Positions 6,686 to 40,980 of a stretch of 64,000 nt of DNA are shown one piece after another. Every line of letters starts with the position of its first letter. The first letter of the stretch is position 1. Below the pieces are notes generated by a model that worked only from the letters and a program-made list of their open reading frames with translations, was not told where the DNA came from and ran no database searches. The position numbers and the translations under genes were made by a program. Source of the stretch: Escherichia phage A5-4. The DNA lies in sequence record OP744025, one strand, 5' to 3'.

Positions 6686-7068
6686 TCGTAATTAATCCCC
6701 ACGTTAACAATTTCCCCAGTTTTATCATTGAACACTTCAATATCATAGTATTCAATAACGCCTTCTTCATCAAAAGAACTTTTCTGTTTACAAGGTGATA
6801 CCCAAAAGCCGTGAATTACCGCCTCTTCAAGACCATCAGTGCCGGACACACGACTTAATGTTGGATAAGGGACCAGTATAGGTTTTACTTCACCACACCC
6901 ACACGTACAGCAAAATACTTCATCTTCTTCCAGTTGGTACAGTCGCTTTTCTGGAACAAAAGTCAGATGCGCCAAAGGATATTTAGAGACGATGGCATTA
7001 ATATAAGGTTTTCCTGCCAAGCTGTCAATAAATTCATTAAACTCTTTTCTATTTTTTGATAAGCTCAT
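6682..7068 (-). CDS. hypothetical Cys-rich protein
   Basis: 128 aa; CCTCGCG cysteine cluster suggests metal binding. Confidence 0.5.
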   Translation of the reverse strand: MSLSKNRKEFNEFIDSLAGKPYINAIVSKYPLAHLTFVPEKRLYQLEEDEVFCCTCGCGEVKPILVPYPTLSRVSGTDGLEEAVIHGFWVSPCKQKSSFDEEGVIEYYDIEVFNDKTGEIVNVGINYE

Positions 7069-7301
7069 CGAGTACCTCCAAAAATATTTAAAGCTTTAGA
7101 ATAATCAATGTGACCTGGAACAGTGTGGGCCTCTTGTACAAGGCATTGCCGACAAATACGTGACACAACTGTTGTCTTGATCTCTTCTGTATCGTAGAAG
7201 CGAGACATTACCTTTGTAACTTGATTGCATTGAGTAATAACAAAATCGTGTTTACAACTTGGTTTGTTTTCTTCAGTTTCTTTCTTTTTAAAAGGCCACA
7301 T
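7065..7301 (-). CDS. hypothetical Cys-rich protein
   Basis: 78 aa; CKHD...C...CRQC pattern (zinc-ribbon-like); ATGA-type overlap with neighbour. Confidence 0.45.
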   Translation of the reverse strand: MWPFKKKETEENKPSCKHDFVITQCNQVTKVMSRFYDTEEIKTTVVSRICRQCLVQEAHTVPGHIDYSKALNIFGGTR

Positions 7302-7309
7302 GGTGACTC

Positions 7310-7492
7310 CTATTCTTCAACTATTTCGTATTCATCTTTCAAGAGCATAAATTGATAGCCCTTGCCCTTATTCGCAATAATAGTACCAGACGCGCTTTCT
7401 TTTGTCACGAAAAGAATTGAATCTTTTTGGACACCGTAATACTTAAGTTGCTCAAGCAGTTTGGTCTTTGATTCTAAGATTTTGACTTTCAT
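7310..7492 (-). CDS. hypothetical protein
   Basis: 60 aa ORF in block. Confidence 0.4.
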   Translation of the reverse strand: MKVKILESKTKLLEQLKYYGVQKDSILFVTKESASGTIIANKGKGYQFMLLKDEYEIVEE

Positions 7493-7749
7493 TAGATATC
7501 AATTACTACGATTTCAAGCATTGAATTTTCAACAGCTTCCTTAAGCTCATCGTATACAATAATAGACCAATCATTATTAAGATTACCTTTGATCAGTTTA
7601 GCCACCTGTTCTAACGAAGTCACAAAAGGTGTGTCACATTCATTATTGGAGAGACTTAACTTTGTATACATAAAGCCATCATCGTCAGCAGTCTGCCAAA
7701 ATGAAACAAATTCACCACTGACCTTATGTTTTGCTGAGTAAAATTTCAT
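7492..7749 (-). CDS. hypothetical protein
   Basis: 85 aa ORF in block. Confidence 0.45.
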   Translation of the reverse strand: MKFYSAKHKVSGEFVSFWQTADDDGFMYTKLSLSNNECDTPFVTSLEQVAKLIKGNLNNDWSIIVYDELKEAVENSMLEIVVIDI

Positions 7750-7770
7750 TTAATTATCCTCTCTGCCAGT

Positions 7771-8037
7771 TTATAATTTTTCTTTGCCCAAAGTAAGACT
7801 AATTTCGAAAGTTTTTGTTATAACTTTGTCGTCTTTGTCGAAGAAATCAAACTGGACATAACTCTCGGCCGAACTGACAACCAGGCCTACAGAGACAGTC
7901 CCTTCTGGTACGAGAGCCTTATATTCTTCTTTTAGCACAACGTCGTAAAAATACAACGCTCCACAATAAACTTCATCCCAACCATCAAAAGATTCGATGA
8001 AAGCTTTTTCAATACCAACTAAAGTCTTTTCTGACAT
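7771..8037 (-). CDS. hypothetical protein
   Basis: 88 aa ORF in block. Confidence 0.45.
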   Translation of the reverse strand: MSEKTLVGIEKAFIESFDGWDEVYCGALYFYDVVLKEEYKALVPEGTVSVGLVVSSAESYVQFDFFDKDDKVITKTFEISLTLGKEKL

Positions 8038-8060
8038 TATATTTTCCTCTTCGTTTCAAG

Positions 8061-8333
8061 TTAGATATAGTCTACACCAGCTTGTTCCAACAAGTCAAGC
8101 CTTAATTTAAGTTCTTTTTCACGATAGTCGGAAACAAGTTTATCCTTTTTCTTTTCTTCTTCTTCGAACTGGTCGAGTGGAAGAATACGAATAATGTGTT
8201 CTGCCTTCATGTAGGATGTTGATCCGATAAGCTGAACATTACCATTTGGCAGTAGTCGGCCTTTGATCACCCGATAACGAGGAAACAGGTCATATTTGAC
8301 GATTGCTGTAACTGCCATATTACTCATGTGCAT
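8061..8333 (-). CDS. hypothetical protein
   Basis: 90 aa ORF in block. Confidence 0.45.
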   Translation of the reverse strand: MHMSNMAVTAIVKYDLFPRYRVIKGRLLPNGNVQLIGSTSYMKAEHIIRILPLDQFEEEEKKKDKLVSDYREKELKLRLDLLEQAGVDYI

Positions 8334-8646
8334 TCTCCATGTCAGAAATTCGATCTTCTACCCAACCACGACGGTAAATGTTGAGGTAAGATTTACCTTT
8401 TGAACCATGATGGGCATATTCGTCAAAATCAAAATCGAAAGGTGTCTCGGTATTAAGACCTGCATCAAAGAATTGATTCTTCATTTCGAATTGCACTTTC
8501 ATGTCTGGATCATTTTTACCCAGGAATGAGGACAAATTAAAACAAAGGCCAGCGCCTCGGTAAAAAGCACCATCTTTTGGTGCACCGATATCTAACCATT
8601 TTTTATATTCTTGATAGAAATTAAGAAGTTGTGGGCTGCTTTTCAT
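8320..8646 (-). CDS. hypothetical protein (paralog of 18822..19118)
   Basis: 108 aa; shares FYxxYxxWLDxGAP...GLC...DAGL...FPFD pattern with ORF 18822..19118. Confidence 0.5.
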   Translation of the reverse strand: MKSSPQLLNFYQEYKKWLDIGAPKDGAFYRGAGLCFNLSSFLGKNDPDMKVQFEMKNQFFDAGLNTETPFDFDFDEYAHHGSKGKSYLNIYRRGWVEDRISDMENAHE

Positions 8647-8704
8647 TTTGTTCTCCTCATTTGTTTGATAGGACTACTATAACATAGTCCTATCCGCTTG
8701 TATA

Positions 8705-8947
8705 CTATTTAATTAAAGATTTTATAAATGCCTGATATGATTCAAGGTCCTCTTCTTTAATGTGGACTGTACCAGTCTCATCACCTGAAGAATTGAACAT
8801 CTGTACGATAAGATCTTGGTTGCCAGACGAAATGCAAGATAAGTTGCCTGGCTTCAAGCACTCGTTGTATGTTGCCGCTACATCGGTAAAAGCCGCAACG
8901 TTCCAGACACCACAATAATCCATACTTCTTTGAATAATAAAAATCAT
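8705..8947 (-). CDS. hypothetical protein
   Basis: Track ORF 8705..8995 trimmed to the internal ATG at 8947 (MIFIIQRSMDYCG...) to remove overlap with the upstream gene; start uncertain. Confidence 0.4.
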   Translation of the reverse strand: MIFIIQRSMDYCGVWNVAAFTDVAATYNECLKPGNLSCISSGNQDLIVQMFNSSGDETGTVHIKEEDLESYQAFIKSLIK

Positions 8948-8948
8948 C

Positions 8949-9326
8949 TTATACTCCAAATGTGGATTTGATTTCAGCAATAACCTCATGCACATTGTTT
9001 TCGTTTACTTCAAATGTGTAGGACGTTGGTTTAAGGAACGTCTGAGGTGAAACATTAACAAAGAATTCAAATTCATCATCAAAAATTTCAAAGTATTTTC
9101 CAGGTGTTGATTCTTGGCTTTTGAAAACAGTACCATCTTCCATAGTAACAGAAGAAACAGATTTTTCACCAAGGGTGTATGTTTTTAGCTCGTCAACAAC
9201 GAAACTGGGGCCGTGGCGACGGAGTATTTCAACCATAGTTCGGTTAGCTCCACAAATACCAGTACGCTTAATAAATAACTCTTCACACCGAGGATTGAGA
9301 ATATAAGTTTTTCCTACTTGCATCAT
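8949..9326 (-). CDS. hypothetical protein, member 3 of tandem paralog triplet
   Basis: 125 aa; N-terminus MxVGKTYxLNP and C-terminus EVIxxIKSTF shared with the next two genes. Confidence 0.55.
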   Translation of the reverse strand: MMQVGKTYILNPRCEELFIKRTGICGANRTMVEILRRHGPSFVVDELKTYTLGEKSVSSVTMEDGTVFKSQESTPGKYFEIFDDEFEFFVNVSPQTFLKPTSYTFEVNENNVHEVIAEIKSTFGV

Positions 9327-9336
9327 TACAATCTCC

Positions 9337-9696
9337 TTATGCTAAGTTAAATGTGGATTTGATCAGGTCAATAACCTCTTGTGCGTTGCTCTCCGACACA
9401 GATACCTGAATAATTTTAAGGTCGCTGACCTCTTCAAAGTATTCGAACTCAGATTCACGAAGTTCAAAGTACATTGCCCCACAGCCCACACTGAATGAAT
9501 CACACCCTACAGCGCCATCTTCTGTTGTGATGTTATTAACATACTCATCACCTTCGATCATGCTCATGTTGTTAACAATAAATCGTGGCCCGTGCTCATC
9601 CAGAAAAGAAACAATCTCGTGATTGTAACTTGGGTCAGCCTTAATAAATTTGTCTACGAGTTTTGGATTAAGTTTATAAGTTTTACCCACTTCCAT
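9337..9696 (-). CDS. hypothetical protein, member 2 of tandem paralog triplet
   Basis: 119 aa; clearly similar to 9708..10082 (MExGKTYxLN, HGPxFxVNN, YFELxESEF, VSxSNAQExxDLIKxTFNLA). Confidence 0.6.
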   Translation of the reverse strand: MEVGKTYKLNPKLVDKFIKADPSYNHEIVSFLDEHGPRFIVNNMSMIEGDEYVNNITTEDGAVGCDSFSVGCGAMYFELRESEFEYFEEVSDLKIIQVSVSESNAQEVIDLIKSTFNLA

Positions 9697-9707
9697 TTTT
9701 GTTCTCC

Positions 9708-10082
9708 TTACGCCAGGTTAAAGGTAGCTTTAATCAAATCTAAAGTTTCTTGTGCATTACTACGAGAGACGGCAACCTGAATAATAACAGGGTCTTCATC
9801 TTCCCCGACTTCTTTGAAGAAGGGGAATTCACTCTCTGCAAGTTCAAAGTATACACACTTGTTACCTTCGCGGTCGTGAAAAACGTCACTACCTAAAGTA
9901 CCATCTTCAAATATGACATTGTTAACATATCTAACATTATCATAAAAGTAGGTGTTGTTGACAACAAATTTAGGACCGTGTTTATAAAGAAGATCAGCCA
10001 ATTCTTGATTGTAGCTAGGGTCCATACTAATAAAAGCTTTTTCTAAGTCTTTATTAAGAATATAAGTTTTTCCGATTTCCAT
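9708..10082 (-). CDS. hypothetical protein, member 1 of tandem paralog triplet
   Basis: 124 aa; see 9337..9696. Confidence 0.6.
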   Translation of the reverse strand: MEIGKTYILNKDLEKAFISMDPSYNQELADLLYKHGPKFVVNNTYFYDNVRYVNNVIFEDGTLGSDVFHDREGNKCVYFELAESEFPFFKEVGEDEDPVIIQVAVSRSNAQETLDLIKATFNLA

Positions 10083-10095
10083 CTTTGTTTTCCTC

Positions 10096-10272
10096 TTATT
10101 TGTTGATGAATTGGCTAAGGATTTCGATAAGATCTTTAGCTTGTTTCTTGTCGAGAATCACGCTGTCTCCTGCATGGCAGATTTCAATAACATCCTCTTC
10201 TGCATGATATTCAACTTCCTTTGCATGAAAATCTTCAGTTTCTTTAATCACTTTTACAATGCGCTGTGTCAT
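10096..10272 (-). CDS. small acidic protein (58 aa), not in ORF track
   Basis: ATG at 10272 preceded by GGGAGAGAA; translation MTQRIVKVIKETEDFHAKEVEYHAEEDVIEICHAGDSVILDKKQAKDLIEILSQFINK; fills a gap in the minus-strand block. Confidence 0.4.
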   Translation of the reverse strand: MTQRIVKVIKETEDFHAKEVEYHAEEDVIEICHAGDSVILDKKQAKDLIEILSQFINK

Positions 10273-10382
10273 CTTGTTTCTCTCCCTTTCTCTCTTTCAT
10301 CGTTTAGTTTCGATAAGGTGATAGTACATCAACTAACCAATTATTATTTAGCAATTAGTGCTAAACGCCATAATCAATCTTA

Positions 10383-10625
10383 TTAATTTTCATTTAATAC
10401 CCTTAGTGCTCTCTTTTCACAAATATCCCTGAGCCTGATTACCTCTCCTATTAGATAGGAAATAGCCTTAGCTTGTACTGGTTCATCGTAATCCCCAACC
10501 GTCCCAAACACTTCATCGAGAGATAGGAAGAACTCTGAAGAGTAAATACTGTTTTGATCTTCTATAGCACGGTCTGCATTAAATTTAATATCTTCCAGGG
10601 CGCTATTACTGATATTCATAGTCAA
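10383..10625 (-). CDS. hypothetical protein
   Basis: 80 aa ORF, 4-nt overlap with the upstream gene. Confidence 0.45.
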   Translation of the reverse strand: MTMNISNSALEDIKFNADRAIEDQNSIYSSEFFLSLDEVFGTVGDYDEPVQAKAISYLIGEVIRLRDICEKRALRVLNEN

Positions 10626-11047
10626 ACTCCATAATCTATCTTAACAAGCTTCCCTTTGTAGTATCCAAAGTTTTTAGGAAATGCGTCGTACTCGAAGAAA
10701 TCTCGGTCAAGGGTTCTATCTTTATCGTTATCAACCTCATCATAAAGTTTTTGTAGATCAGCTGTAAATAATCCCTTATTCTCTACTGGTTTAGCCTTGT
10801 GCATCACAACCATAAGTCCGAATCTGTTTGAGTAAGCTATTGGGCATAGATGCGGGTTATTATACCCTTTCCACTGACCCTCCGTCATATTGCTGAGCAT
10901 TCCCTGAACAAACGCCTTCCATGAATTAAATCTTGGGAACTTAATCGCATACTTGTTTGTGATTATGACAATTCTCGTCCCACCACTCCTGTTTATCTGC
11001 ATCTTAATATCTCCAGACCTCGTTACTTGTTTCGATGAGGGCATCAT
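10622..11047 (-). CDS. hypothetical protein, possible small kinase-like fold
   Basis: 141 aa; Gly-rich loop RSGGTRIVIITNKYAIKF and KIDYG near C-terminus faintly resemble kinase subdomains. Speculative. Confidence 0.45.
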   Translation of the reverse strand: MMPSSKQVTRSGDIKMQINRSGGTRIVIITNKYAIKFPRFNSWKAFVQGMLSNMTEGQWKGYNNPHLCPIAYSNRFGLMVVMHKAKPVENKGLFTADLQKLYDEVDNDKDRTLDRDFFEYDAFPKNFGYYKGKLVKIDYGV

Positions 11048-11084
11048 ACCAGAATGAATCTGTGTGTCAACACTTTTTATTCAG

Positions 11085-11112
11085 GCAATAAAAAACCACC
11101 CCGAAGGGTGGC
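11085..11112 (-). terminator. rho-independent terminator
   Basis: Hairpin ccaccc-cgaa-gggtgg with T-run on the minus strand, just downstream of polymerase exon 2. Confidence 0.6.
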
Positions 11113-11129
11113 TTAAGATTAAAATTTCA

Positions 11130-11429
11130 TTAGTGACAATCTCCCCAGCTGTATCCACAAAGGTATTCTCCAGTTATCATCACTGGTGATTTCATCATCT
11201 TAGCTGCTTGTTCGACACAACGAACAACCATCTCTCCTACAGGGCAGTATGTAATAGTGAAGATACCATTTTCATCTGGATCACACTTAAACTTCCCTTC
11301 CTTCACGCAATGACCATCCAAGATCATTTTCTTAGCCAAGCAAGCTTCTACAAATTTCTTCGCGTCAGCTTCATTGTCAAAGGTCCAAGTCTTCTTAAAC
11401 TTGTGTGGCACTTCAAGCTGGTATTCATC
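11130..11429 (-). CDS. DNA polymerase (family A, T7 gp5-like), exon 2
   Basis: Frame of ORF 11130..11480 from GAT at 11429: DEYQLEVPHKF... ending ...GYSWGDCH, matching the family A C-terminus (T7 ...NWAICH); completes motif C when joined to exon 1. Confidence 0.7.
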   Translation of the reverse strand, partial: DEYQLEVPHKFKKTWTFDNEADAKKFVEACLAKKMILDGHCVKEGKFKCDPDENGIFTITYCPVGEMVVRCVEQAAKMMKSPVMITGEYLCGYSWGDCH

Positions 11430-12201
11430 CAAAAGTTTAACGAGGTCGTTACTCTCGCCCACATCATTACATGTTGCCATACGTTTTCACGTATGGATCG
11501 GACTATATCACCATCCTTTTCAGGATGCTCCCCATTTCGACGGCACTTGCTCGCCTACGCCTCTCGGCTAGTCTCTGAACGTTAGGACCATGTGTAGTCA
11601 CAAGAGATGTGTGTCCAGTTTTTACGGATTTTTATGGACCTTACCACGTTGTAAGGATAACCCATATCCCGAATCTGTGCACTTCCATAACCTTGCCCCA
11701 GGAAGTTGCAAATCTCTCTAACCTCTTCTTCGGTAACTATACTTCTGGCGTTATCAACCCCTGTTGCTGAACGACATTTATCAGCAAAGGTTTTCTTGAT
11801 ATTTCCACCACGAGTTGTCCATTGGAGGTTTGAATAGTGGTTATTCCTTTTGTCAGGCCACTTATGATCAACCTCCGGCAAACCTTCAGGGTTTGGTACA
11901 AAACACTCTGCCACCAAAACGTGAACAGCCTTTGTAGTCGTCCTTTTGTTGAGATACAGACTTACAATAAGATACCCACGTCCATTATCAACTGCCGCCA
12001 TTGGTTTCCCTCGACGACCTATAATGGTCCCGTCTTCATAAACCTTGTAACCGAAATAATCTTTATATTCCACATGATCCTCTTCGCTGCTGATTAACAT
12101 AGTCTCATACTAACTCACACTTGAATTAATATCAACCTTAGTCTTCCAGCAATTAAAGGAGTTTTCGATGTGAGTTACCTCACAAAGCCACAATGTTACT
12201 T
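11430..12201 (-). mobile_element. group I intron carrying an HNH homing endonuclease gene, inserted in polymerase motif C
   Basis: 772 nt between codons H and D of HDE. 5-prime exon ends in U, intron ends in G. Contains P-like AAUUGCUGGAAGACU (12139-12153), Q-like AAUCAGCAGC (12086-12095), R-like GUUCAGAGACUA (11566-11581) and S-like GAUAUAGUCC (11500-11511). Confidence 0.7.
11582..12100 (-). CDS. HNH homing endonuclease (intron-encoded)
   Basis: 172 aa; GYLIVSL...AVHVLVAECF...VDHKWPDKRNNHYSNLQWTTRGGN is an HNH-3 type signature; lies between the two polymerase exons. Confidence 0.75.
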   Translation of the reverse strand: MLISSEEDHVEYKDYFGYKVYEDGTIIGRRGKPMAAVDNGRGYLIVSLYLNKRTTTKAVHVLVAECFVPNPEGLPEVDHKWPDKRNNHYSNLQWTTRGGNIKKTFADKCRSATGVDNARSIVTEEEVREICNFLGQGYGSAQIRDMGYPYNVVRSIKIRKNWTHISCDYTWS

Positions 12202-14085
12202 ATGGTAATAGATAATACGTCTAACGCCTTCATCATACCAACCTTTCTTGACCAACTGCCAGTGCAGGAGGATACCCACCAAGTCAAACAGTGCAGCACC
12301 ACCATTCTGCTGATAAGCATTAAGCAATGAGTGTTTGGAACGAGTGTAGATCTTACGCCCATCCAGACCATAGATGAATCGCTTACCGTTAGCTTCCCAA
12401 AACTTCTCTAATGCTTCTTTACGACCTTTCAAGCCGATGTTGCTATCCCAGAATGCGTCGATTACTGCTTGGGCTTTCTCAAGACTGATACCAAGCATTG
12501 ATGCAATCTTCGCTGCCTGTGCCCCGTACATGATTCCGTATGTCACCCCTTTACCTTCGCCACGAGAAACCTTCTTCCCTGCTGCTTTGGTATATGCTTC
12601 TGCGTTTCGGGAGTGAGCATCTCCAGATTCCATGATACGAAGATAAGCACCGCCATCGAAATCATAAGCGCCCCATGCTGCGATCATGCCTTCCAAGTTT
12701 GAACCGTCGATACCTACCTGATATTTACCCTCAGAGGCTCTGAATAGTTCACGCATCTCTTTACCGAGAAGAACTTTCTCATCCGGCTTAGGTACGTTTG
12801 CTACGATCGTATGCTTACGACGACCTGTGTTAGTTATTCCACTATAACGGGCCGGAAGTTTACCGTCAACTCGTAGACGTGGATGGTTAAGCCATCCGGT
12901 ATCAACCTTCTCTTCTTTCAGCGGGTCAAGAACAGATCGTCGGTTACGTAAAGACAGCCATTTAACAATCTGTTTAGCCATTTCACCATCTACTCGCTCA
13001 AGGTTAGGGCAAAGACCTTGCTGATCCTTAAGTTGCGGGGATGTTGGCAATGCACGAGCTTTCTTACGGAAAAACTTGAACATCTTTTCTTTATCTGACC
13101 ACTGCTTAGGTGTGATCGCCAAGCTTTTCAGAATCAGATCACGATACTCCGTCTGATCCAAATCTTCAATGTATTGACGAACAATCAGATCAACCTCACT
13201 ATCAGGACGCTGTTTCTTGAACTGATCTTTAGTTGCATCCTTTGTACGCCAAATTGTTGGGACCCACCCTGCATCACGGATCAGGAACTTCTTAACGTCG
13301 TCCTGGTTACCAATACGCATCGGAATCATAATGTCCGGCATCTTTTGTTCTTTGATATCCATCAAAGCACGAGCCATATCTTCCGGCGGCAAAGGAACAA
13401 GTCCTTGCTGCTTAACGTTTTGTGCACGGATAAAATCACCCATTTTGGATTCATCCTCTACACCGTGCTCAACACAATACTTGATCGCGGCGGCAGTAAG
13501 AGATCCGTCAGCCTTAAACGGCTTACTTGGTGCACCTTTAAACTCCAAGGCTTCCCAATTGATATTATAACCTAACTTCTCTAACCATTTCCAACCTGTA
13601 CCGGAAAGAGATCCATCACCCTTGAAAGGTTTAGATGGGAATGTCGGTTGTGCTGATTTCGACATCTCTTTCTTCGGCAACTTAGGTTCAACCTCTAACT
13701 CAATGTCTGTCATCATCTTATCGATACGATCACGAAGCTTGAGTGCTTTTTCTTCATCAAATGAAACACCCTGAATTTCTTGCTCAATCATCAGGTAGTC
13801 AGTCAACATACCTCGACGCAGGGCATTCTTCCAGTTGATCATTTTATACTTCTTCTGATCTTTGTCTGTTTCATCCTTATACATGAAGCGTTTATCATCC
13901 GGCATAGATTCACAAGAGATCTCTTTCATCAGAGCATCCCATACCATTTCGTTGATAATTACGTCTTCAATAATACGATCGCAATACTTCCAAAGTGGAA
14001 GGCCACGCCAATCTTCGATCGCCACTTTCTGGTTAGCTACTCGCATACCCCAAGCTTCAAGCCCGTGTGGCCCTACAGGCTTCAT
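12202..14085 (-). CDS. DNA polymerase (family A, T7 gp5-like), polymerase part, exon 1
   Basis: HGLEAWGMRV matches T7 HALEAWGYRLG; Exo III-like YCDRIIEDV; motif B region SRGEGKGVTYGIMYGAQAAKI; reading frame ends ...RRIIYYH at the intron junction (track ORF 12196..14085). Confidence 0.8.
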
Positions 14086-40356: not shown

Positions 40357-40980
40357 ATGGCTATCTATGCAAAACTGAAAGAAAGTAAGAAAAGTTATTT
40401 TATTTCAATGGACCCATCTAACCGACGTATGATTGAAAATCATGGTGATCGATTCATTGTTCGACCTTCTGAGAATAACGATTCTTACTTACGTCCGGTG
40501 GGTCCACGTATTGAGGGTCAGTTCTTAACATCCCGAGATATCGAAGAGTATTTCACATTCTTCCCTAAATGGTCAGCAGAGTCAGCAGAATACATCGTTA
40601 ACCTAGCGGTTCCACGGGGTCAAGTGGCTATCGACAATCAGTATCTGTTAGGGGATGGAAGTGTTAGTGATTACAAAATTAAAACAAGTCATCCGAATAT
40701 GTGGCGACTGTATAACTCTGATAACCCTGACGATTACGTTATGCTCAACCAAAGTAATTTAGAGAAATACTTCACTTTACAGGAAGATAGCTTAAAGAAA
40801 GCATTGGCTAAGTTTGATAATTACACTCCTGCACCTGTAGAAAAAGAACAGGAAGTTGTAGATACGTATGTTTTTGAAGTGAACATTAAGCGCACAGTCA
40901 GAGTTAAGGATGCGGAAGTCACAGAGGACAATCTGGATCAATTCATTGCACAGCTTACTAAACTGGTTAAAGGAGAATAA
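40357..40980 (+). CDS. hypothetical protein
   Basis: 207 aa ORF with GGAGA RBS. Confidence 0.5.
   Translation: MAIYAKLKESKKSYFISMDPSNRRMIENHGDRFIVRPSENNDSYLRPVGPRIEGQFLTSRDIEEYFTFFPKWSAESAEYIVNLAVPRGQVAIDNQYLLGDGSVSDYKIKTSHPNMWRLYNSDNPDDYVMLNQSNLEKYFTLQEDSLKKALAKFDNYTPAPVEKEQEVVDTYVFEVNIKRTVRVKDAEVTEDNLDQFIAQLTKLVKGE

Follow-up and report, generated by a model that had tools for sequence, protein, structure and literature searches.

The Frd.2 protein of phage T4 (NP_049852; PF03197; phrog_622) is an early non-structural protein (PMC12152347). Kim et al. (2025) grouped Frd.2 with GoF and MotB.1, two other early T4 proteins, on the basis of a predicted LSm/SH3-like N-terminal domain, for which FeoA-type domains are the nearest structural neighbors (PMC12152347). 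Frd.2 is conserved across T4-like phages and relevant to fitness in a genome-wide knock-down screen of T4 by CRISPRi-ART, where frd.2 was the sole gene of unknown function to be called "Fit" (PMC11879866), a call that conflicts with the normal plating of frd.2 amber mutants (PMC12152347). T4 and RB69 have one annotated frd.2 copy each. Diverged, same-strand and adjacent or nearly adjacent Frd.2 paralogs are found in Dhakavirus JS10 (frd.2a and frd.2b), Gaprivervirus P479 and Mosigvirus FP43.

We analyzed a three-gene array in a Vequintavirinae (rV5-like) coliphage, in a window that comprises the whole stretch of DNA under analysis (64,000 nucleotides). The array had been described in an earlier note as three consecutive genes, and co-oriented minus-strand ORFs were found exactly at the positions that the note had given (Table 1). 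By their sequences, A, B, and C all belong to the Frd.2 family of phage T4, and the small T4-type accessory island that carries them lies immediately downstream of the DNA polymerase gene. Our favored reading, to which we assign a probability of about 60%, is that these Frd.2-family genes in the T4-type island of an rV5-like phage encode proteins for early host takeover that act by binding a partner protein. Three aspects of the locus are somewhat new: the presence in a Vequintavirinae clade of a family described as conserved throughout the Tevenvirinae; the number of copies, which is three as compared to one or two in the T4-like genomes examined; and direct evidence that cassettes have been exchanged with Mosigvirus at an intergenic element of T4 type. 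The locus is otherwise a routine accessory-gene cluster of an already described, functionally uncharacterized family, and holds little surprise for phage genomicists.

Table 1. Features of the Frd.2 array and its surroundings (positions in the window).
Feature	Coordinates	Strand	Properties and basis
Terminator-like hairpin, then TTGACA-16-TATGAT with TG	11043..11114	-	consensus scan; promoter-like part 11070-11043
Frd.2-family copy A	9708..10082	-	124 aa, pI 4.4; ORF, Pfam, phrog_622, AF2
Frd.2-family copy B	9337..9696	-	119 aa, pI 4.3; forms a duplicate pair with A
Frd.2-family copy C	8949..9326	-	125 aa, pI 5.05; subfamily other than that of A and B
RB69 ORF245c-like gene	8705..8947	-	80 aa; phrog_16188, E 3.4e-30; starts 1 nt past the stop of C
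T4-type intergenic element	8647..8712	-	66 nt; hairpin, promoter-like hexamers and GGAG RBS of the next gene

The family assignment rests on two profile collections. PF03197 (FRD2, "Bacteriophage FRD2 protein") matched A with 64.8 bits (E 1.2e-17), B with 73.0 bits (E 3.4e-20), and C with 73.0 bits (E 3.5e-20), all above the gathering threshold of 29 bits, and phrog_622 was matched full-length by all three proteins (copy A, E 4.6e-21; overall down to 1e-23). In a 27-member family alignment that includes A, B, and C, as well as in an alignment with the T4, JS10 and P479 proteins, the conserved columns Y7, N25, G36, F39, F77-E78, E83-F84, F87, N104, and F116 of PF03197 are present in the array proteins, which are single-domain proteins within the ~110-135 aa typical of the family. 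T4 Frd.2 shares with them its length (~120-130 aa), its acidity, a predicted barrel followed by a C-terminal helix, and the motifs GKxY, N, HG/GGxF, YFE, EFxFFxEV, and NxxExIxLIxxxF, but it is only 29-35% identical to A, B, and C. The genomic setting is likewise different. The single T4 gene is located between gene 32 and frd, a context that is also present in RB69, JS10, P479, and FP43 and is absent for the array, which holds three copies downstream of a Vequintavirinae DNA polymerase gene; we treat this position as a matter of context and not as a property that defines the protein family.

To place the array among other phages, we compared copy B with 50,697 phage records by tblastn. Among the matches listed, only those to A7_1, A73, W70, UPEC06, and vB_EcoM-LTH01 (LTH01) exceeded 90% identity; the same phages provide the closest records to the source genome, with A7_1 (96% identity) in the lead. 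The other listed matches, at ~33% identity, were all to T4-like-sized genomes, many with the gene annotated as frd.2 or FRD2, and those genomes outside the clade that were inspected belong to the Tevenvirinae. When 1.84 billion cluster representatives were searched with an Frd.2 profile, 40 clusters matched, approximately 35 of which are small phage-type proteins of ~110-140 aa with the same motifs; homologs of cellular type were not found among these representatives. Four matched clusters of much longer proteins (P0026, P0032, P0035, and P0039; 358-1749 aa) were rejected as spurious, since these tandem-repeat proteins have several matching stretches each and cover the profile only partially. 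A word-indexed homolog search with copy B recovered only its own ortholog, and the fuller set was obtained from the HMMER scan. A loci search with the three-copy alignment returned three IMG/VR loci, none of them from this phage clade. A sequence-profile search of the PDB detected no solved structure of a family member.

The earlier note had also listed three motifs shared by the genes, all of which are present: an N-terminal motif (MEIGKTYILNK in A, MEVGKTYKLNP in B, and MMQVGKTYILNP in C), a central motif (HGPKFVVNN, HGPRFIVNN, and HGPSFVVDE, respectively), and a C-terminal motif (SRSNAQETLDLIKATFNLA, SESNAQEVIDLIKSTFNLA, and NENNVHEVIAEIKSTFGV, respectively). Pairwise BLASTP with compositional adjustment gave 55% identity for A/B (E 8e-44), 35% for A/C (E 3e-20), and 38% for B/C (E 1e-21). 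With these E-values, and with each alignment covering essentially the full length of the proteins, the similarity is far above what chance would give and extends well outside low-complexity segments; the 35 invariant columns of the three-way alignment are likewise distributed along the whole length. Copy C is the most diverged member, as had been proposed. On the coding strand the intergenic gaps are 10-11 nt, and each following gene has a TAAGGAGA Shine-Dalgarno sequence that includes the TAA stop codon of its upstream neighbor, an arrangement that fits one polycistronic unit.

An HMM search of all ORFs in the window found no close fourth paralog, with a distant candidate only at 40357-40980. 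This 207-aa ORF on the plus strand matches the Frd.2 profile weakly, though significantly (E 2.6e-6), and its residues 6-67 align to the family with an hhalign probability of 88%. Its N-terminus "YFISMDPSNRRMIENHGDRFIV" mirrors that of copy A, and a "EVTEDNLDQFIAQLTK"-type helix lies at the C-terminal end. The ORF may encode a distant, longer, possibly two-barrel relative of Frd.2, like two proteins of 225-254 aa (P0034 and P0038).

The relationships among the copies were assessed by neighbor-joining phylogeny with 500 bootstrap replicates. A clade of A and B is recovered in 97.6% of these; C groups in 84.6% with the allele found at the same position in LTH01, with a T4-like Frd.2 (P0005), and with both copies of Mosigvirus FP43. 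Bit scores are in line with this topology: the best match of C outside its own clade is the downstream copy of FP43 (46% identity, 110 bits), as compared to 67-70 bits against A and B, and the LTH01 position-C allele scores 153 bits (60% identity) against the upstream copy of FP43 and 100 bits against C of the window. The tree and the bit scores together show that the array consists of one old duplicate pair, A/B, and a member of a separate subfamily, C, which is common to Mosigvirus-type T4-like phages. Judged from the tree, the A/B duplication is particular to this phage clade. The FP43 tandem copies belong with C and the LTH01 allele, and A/B lean weakly to the frd.2a type. Deep nodes are poorly supported (48.8% for A/B with the frd.2a type, 45.8% for C with the FP43 downstream copy). 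Synonymous divergence between the paralogs is saturated (dS 1.7-2.2, Nei-Gojobori), which indicates that the duplication is old and makes the paralog dN/dS uninformative; the values obtained (0.17-0.39) were set aside as unreliable. There was no sign of recent gene conversion between copies, with no long identical tracts and only tracts of 30-47 nt at 65-81% identity.

The earlier note had read the array as a tandem triplication and had pointed to host-range or anti-defense selection. On such a reading, one ancestral gene was triplicated in place and the copies are diverging in an arms race. The copies are indeed true tandem paralogs, with homology along the entire length and a gradation in divergence, and tandem Frd.2 pairs have arisen repeatedly in T4-like phages (JS10 frd.2a/b, P479, and FP43). 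A simple triplication in place is nevertheless contradicted by the tree, where monophyly of all copies of this phage clade was recovered in just 0.4% of bootstrap replicates, and by the closer similarity of C to the Mosigvirus copies. As to selection, Nei-Gojobori estimates between orthologs gave dN/dS of 0.0-0.31 across A, B, and C, well under 1 in every pair, which points to purifying and not diversifying selection on all three copies. The values for A and B (0.12-0.31) are somewhat above those of the four flanking genes (0.03-0.21), and selection on these two copies is perhaps slightly relaxed; Tajima relative-rate tests revealed no significant asymmetry between them. Nor does copy number vary: three copies were found in five of five GenBank relatives, and also in both long Logan contigs with an identical copy C protein. 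The sole arms-race-like signal is the occurrence of two very different position-C alleles among close relatives, but the LTH01 allele was exchanged as a recombination tract and did not diverge by point mutation. A role in host range through adsorption is also unlikely, given that the array lies in the replication/early block and not among tail-fibre genes, and that the T4 homolog is early and non-structural (PMC12152347). On an anti-defense or host-takeover function these observations weigh neither way. Taken as a whole, in-place triplication under arms-race selection is an improbable account of the locus.

The AlphaFold2 predictions for A (pLDDT 85.6) and B (pLDDT 91.1) are mutually consistent. 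In the predicted layout, strand 1 precedes two helices, strands 2-4 come next, and after a short helix and a strand a less confident linker leads to a conserved amphipathic C-terminal helix. The ~14-kDa protein is predicted to fold into an N-terminal FeoA/Tudor-type SH3-like beta barrel with a two-helix insertion, and the models show the five-stranded SH3/LSm-like barrel and C-terminal element described for the PF03197 family (PMC12152347), with SH3/Tudor domains among their structural hits. Foldseek searches against viral models retrieved uncharacterized proteins, of which those with a named source are from T4-like phages. Among the proteins retrieved were GoF (E 1.1e-4) and T4 MotB.1 (E 3.6e-4), in agreement with the grouping of Kim et al. 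(2025) (PMC12152347). GoF and MotB.1 are small early accessory proteins, as we propose for A, B, and C, but differ from them in having no similarity at the sequence level and different C-terminal domains, and for GoF only the D25Y mutant has an assayed activity. The resemblance to FeoA/DtxR SH3-like and CarD/UvrD Tudor-like domains is one of fold only (5-20% identity), with no shared motifs or Pfam matches; the metal-binding histidines are not evident in A, B, or C.

A, B, and C most likely serve early in host takeover, by binding to a protein partner. In this proposal, the three genes would be co-transcribed early as one operon from a sigma-70-type promoter, like T4 frd.2, and their products would be accessory factors of host takeover that affect transcription or the fate of mRNA. 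Because the proteins are so acidic, a basic protein partner, of host or phage origin, is a more likely ligand than RNA itself. The retention of several diverged copies may provide several binding specificities or allow hetero-oligomers to form. [quoted passage not shown] It draws on the prediction of a five-stranded LSm-like N-terminal domain with Hfq among its structural neighbors and on the stabilization of a reporter mRNA by GoF(D25Y) (PMC12152347), and the A and B models share the barrel and are linked by Foldseek to GoF and MotB.1. The charge of the family argues in the opposite direction: it is uniformly acidic, with a median pI of 4.47 and a net charge of -11 as compared to a pI of 10 for the Hfq core, and the only basic region is the N-terminal half of copy C. 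Furthermore, wild-type GoF and MotB.1 are inert in the reporter assay, in which activity was seen only with a mutation that makes the surface potential more positive (PMC12152347); A, B, and C have no LSM/Hfq Pfam match at E <=1; and Sm-fold proteins with basic RNA-binding faces were not the closest structural neighbors. We therefore regard direct RNA binding as unlikely, and family acidity as a concrete argument against the RNA-chaperone hypothesis and for a protein target. Less likely again is that the barrel is a Tudor-like RNAP-interacting domain of the CarD, Mfd, or UvrD type that docks on RNAP beta and redirects or protects early transcription. No CarD_CdnL_TRCF Pfam match to A, B, or C was found. 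Copies A, B, and C and the LTH01 allele constitute a set of natural variants for functional tests.

The T4-type character of the island extends beyond the three frd.2-like genes. The gene that follows C is 78.6% identical in nucleotide and 70% identical in amino-acid sequence to RB69 ORF245c, and genes of this type occur in only 10 phage records, all of them RB69-like (RB69-group Mosigvirus). In RB69, ORF245c also adjoins frd.2, and it is labeled "frd.3" in AY301284. Two other identities for this gene were considered and rejected: it is not homologous to T4 Frd.3, and it has no match to the gene downstream of the FP43 frd.2 copies. In A7_1 and A73 it is reduced to an internally deleted (~168 bp) remnant, and the closest Vequintavirinae relatives in general hold either this remnant or nothing; the Logan contigs have the same short gap of 134 nt at the corresponding position. 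On the far side of the intergenic element, the gene at 8320..8646 (108 aa) belongs to a gene pool of phi92, Phapecoctavirus, and N4 and not to the T4 pool, which bounds the island at roughly 8647-10082. Composition gave no signal of recent import (GC 35.5-39.7% as compared to 39.8 +/- 3.6% locally), and a scan of 7000-12500 identified no Rfam families in the array.

The intergenic element contains a perfect 10-bp stem at 8667-8694 (fold of -16.5 kcal/mol, z -4.7), which is overlapped by a promoter-like TATACA-17-TATAGT sequence (with TG) detected by consensus scan at 8704-8676. It occurs once in the window, with 0 copies expected by chance, and was found at 1518 places in 598 phage records, with up to 8 copies per Mosigvirus genome. 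T4 carries one copy of the element, near the start of gene 41. In FP43 an identical hairpin is situated between the two frd.2 copies, so that the tandem pair of a T4-like phage has the same element beside its genes as the array; the differences are that FP43 has two copies and the array three, and that the array resides in a different host-genome lineage. A possible counterpart among described elements is the promoter-early stem-loop (PeSL) of T4-like phages (PMC2839356, PMC4122927), which is similarly a conserved, intergenic, multicopy stem-loop with promoter-like hexamers, and the element resembles PeSLs also in lying at indel and replacement boundaries. It departs from the terminator-then-promoter layout of PeSLs (PMC4122927) in that its hexamers overlap the stem and a U-tract is absent.

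Evidence for exchange with Mosigvirus at this element came from LTH01. The 5' half of its position-C gene (L003 3707-4096) is ~50-65% identical to the upstream frd.2 of FP43, whereas the 3' half, together with the element, is 82-97% identical to FP43 in DNA, and the identity collapses directly beyond the ATG of the next gene. This pattern indicates a recombination tract shared with Mosigvirus that ends at the hairpin element, and the chimeric gene points to recent recombination between phage families; the allele is separated from copy C of the window by a dS of 1.8. The ending of the tract at the element recalls the role that has been put forward for PeSL cassettes in T4-like phages (PMC2839356, PMC4122927). 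Among the relatives, the element lies both at the boundary of the deletion in A7_1 and A73 and at that of the recombination in LTH01, and it may serve as a PeSL-like crossover site common to both phage families. The three retained copies and the Mosigvirus recombination tracts suggest that the gene is worth acquiring and keeping outside the T4-like phages. A bolder proposal, which we consider unlikely, is that Straboviridae and Vequintavirinae, two unrelated families of E. coli myoviruses, actively trade Frd.2 cassettes through recombination at the hairpin element, and that the repeated, independent accumulation of two or three diverged copies reflects selection on an acidic SH3-like effector which neutralizes a variable host target. 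If this were true, the target might be, for example, a defense or RNA-surveillance protein, and Frd.2 would be a counter-defense or host-takeover factor of general importance.

Upstream of the array, the terminator-like hairpin and near-consensus sigma-70 promoter-like sequence at the beginning of Table 1 form a candidate start of a transcription unit running through A, B, and C. All ORFs from this site to position 8705 are co-oriented and closely spaced. Promoter-like sites as a class were not more frequent than in shuffled controls (20 found, as compared to 15.8 +/- 4.0).

The DNA polymerase gene itself is split into two parts (12196-14085 and 11130-11480). The interruption at 11478-12211 (minus strand) matches the group I intron family RF00028 over the full model with 42.9 bits (gathering score 50; E 1.1e-8) and carries an ORF for an HNH endonuclease (Pfam HNH_3) at 11582-12100. 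The polymerase gene is also split in A73 and LTH01; in A7_1 and two Logan contigs it is uninterrupted and encodes 876-884 aa. Close relatives differ as well in the stretch from the polymerase gene to the array (10096-11047, minus strand). In the window and in A7_1 it contains three extra small ORFs (58, 78-80, and 141 aa), the 58-aa product having a weak match, below threshold, to a T4 y05I-like C-terminal domain (E 0.0016); A73, LTH01, and the Logan contigs lack all three ORFs. These patterns indicate that the window combines an A7_1-like set of small genes with an A73-like, intron-containing polymerase gene.
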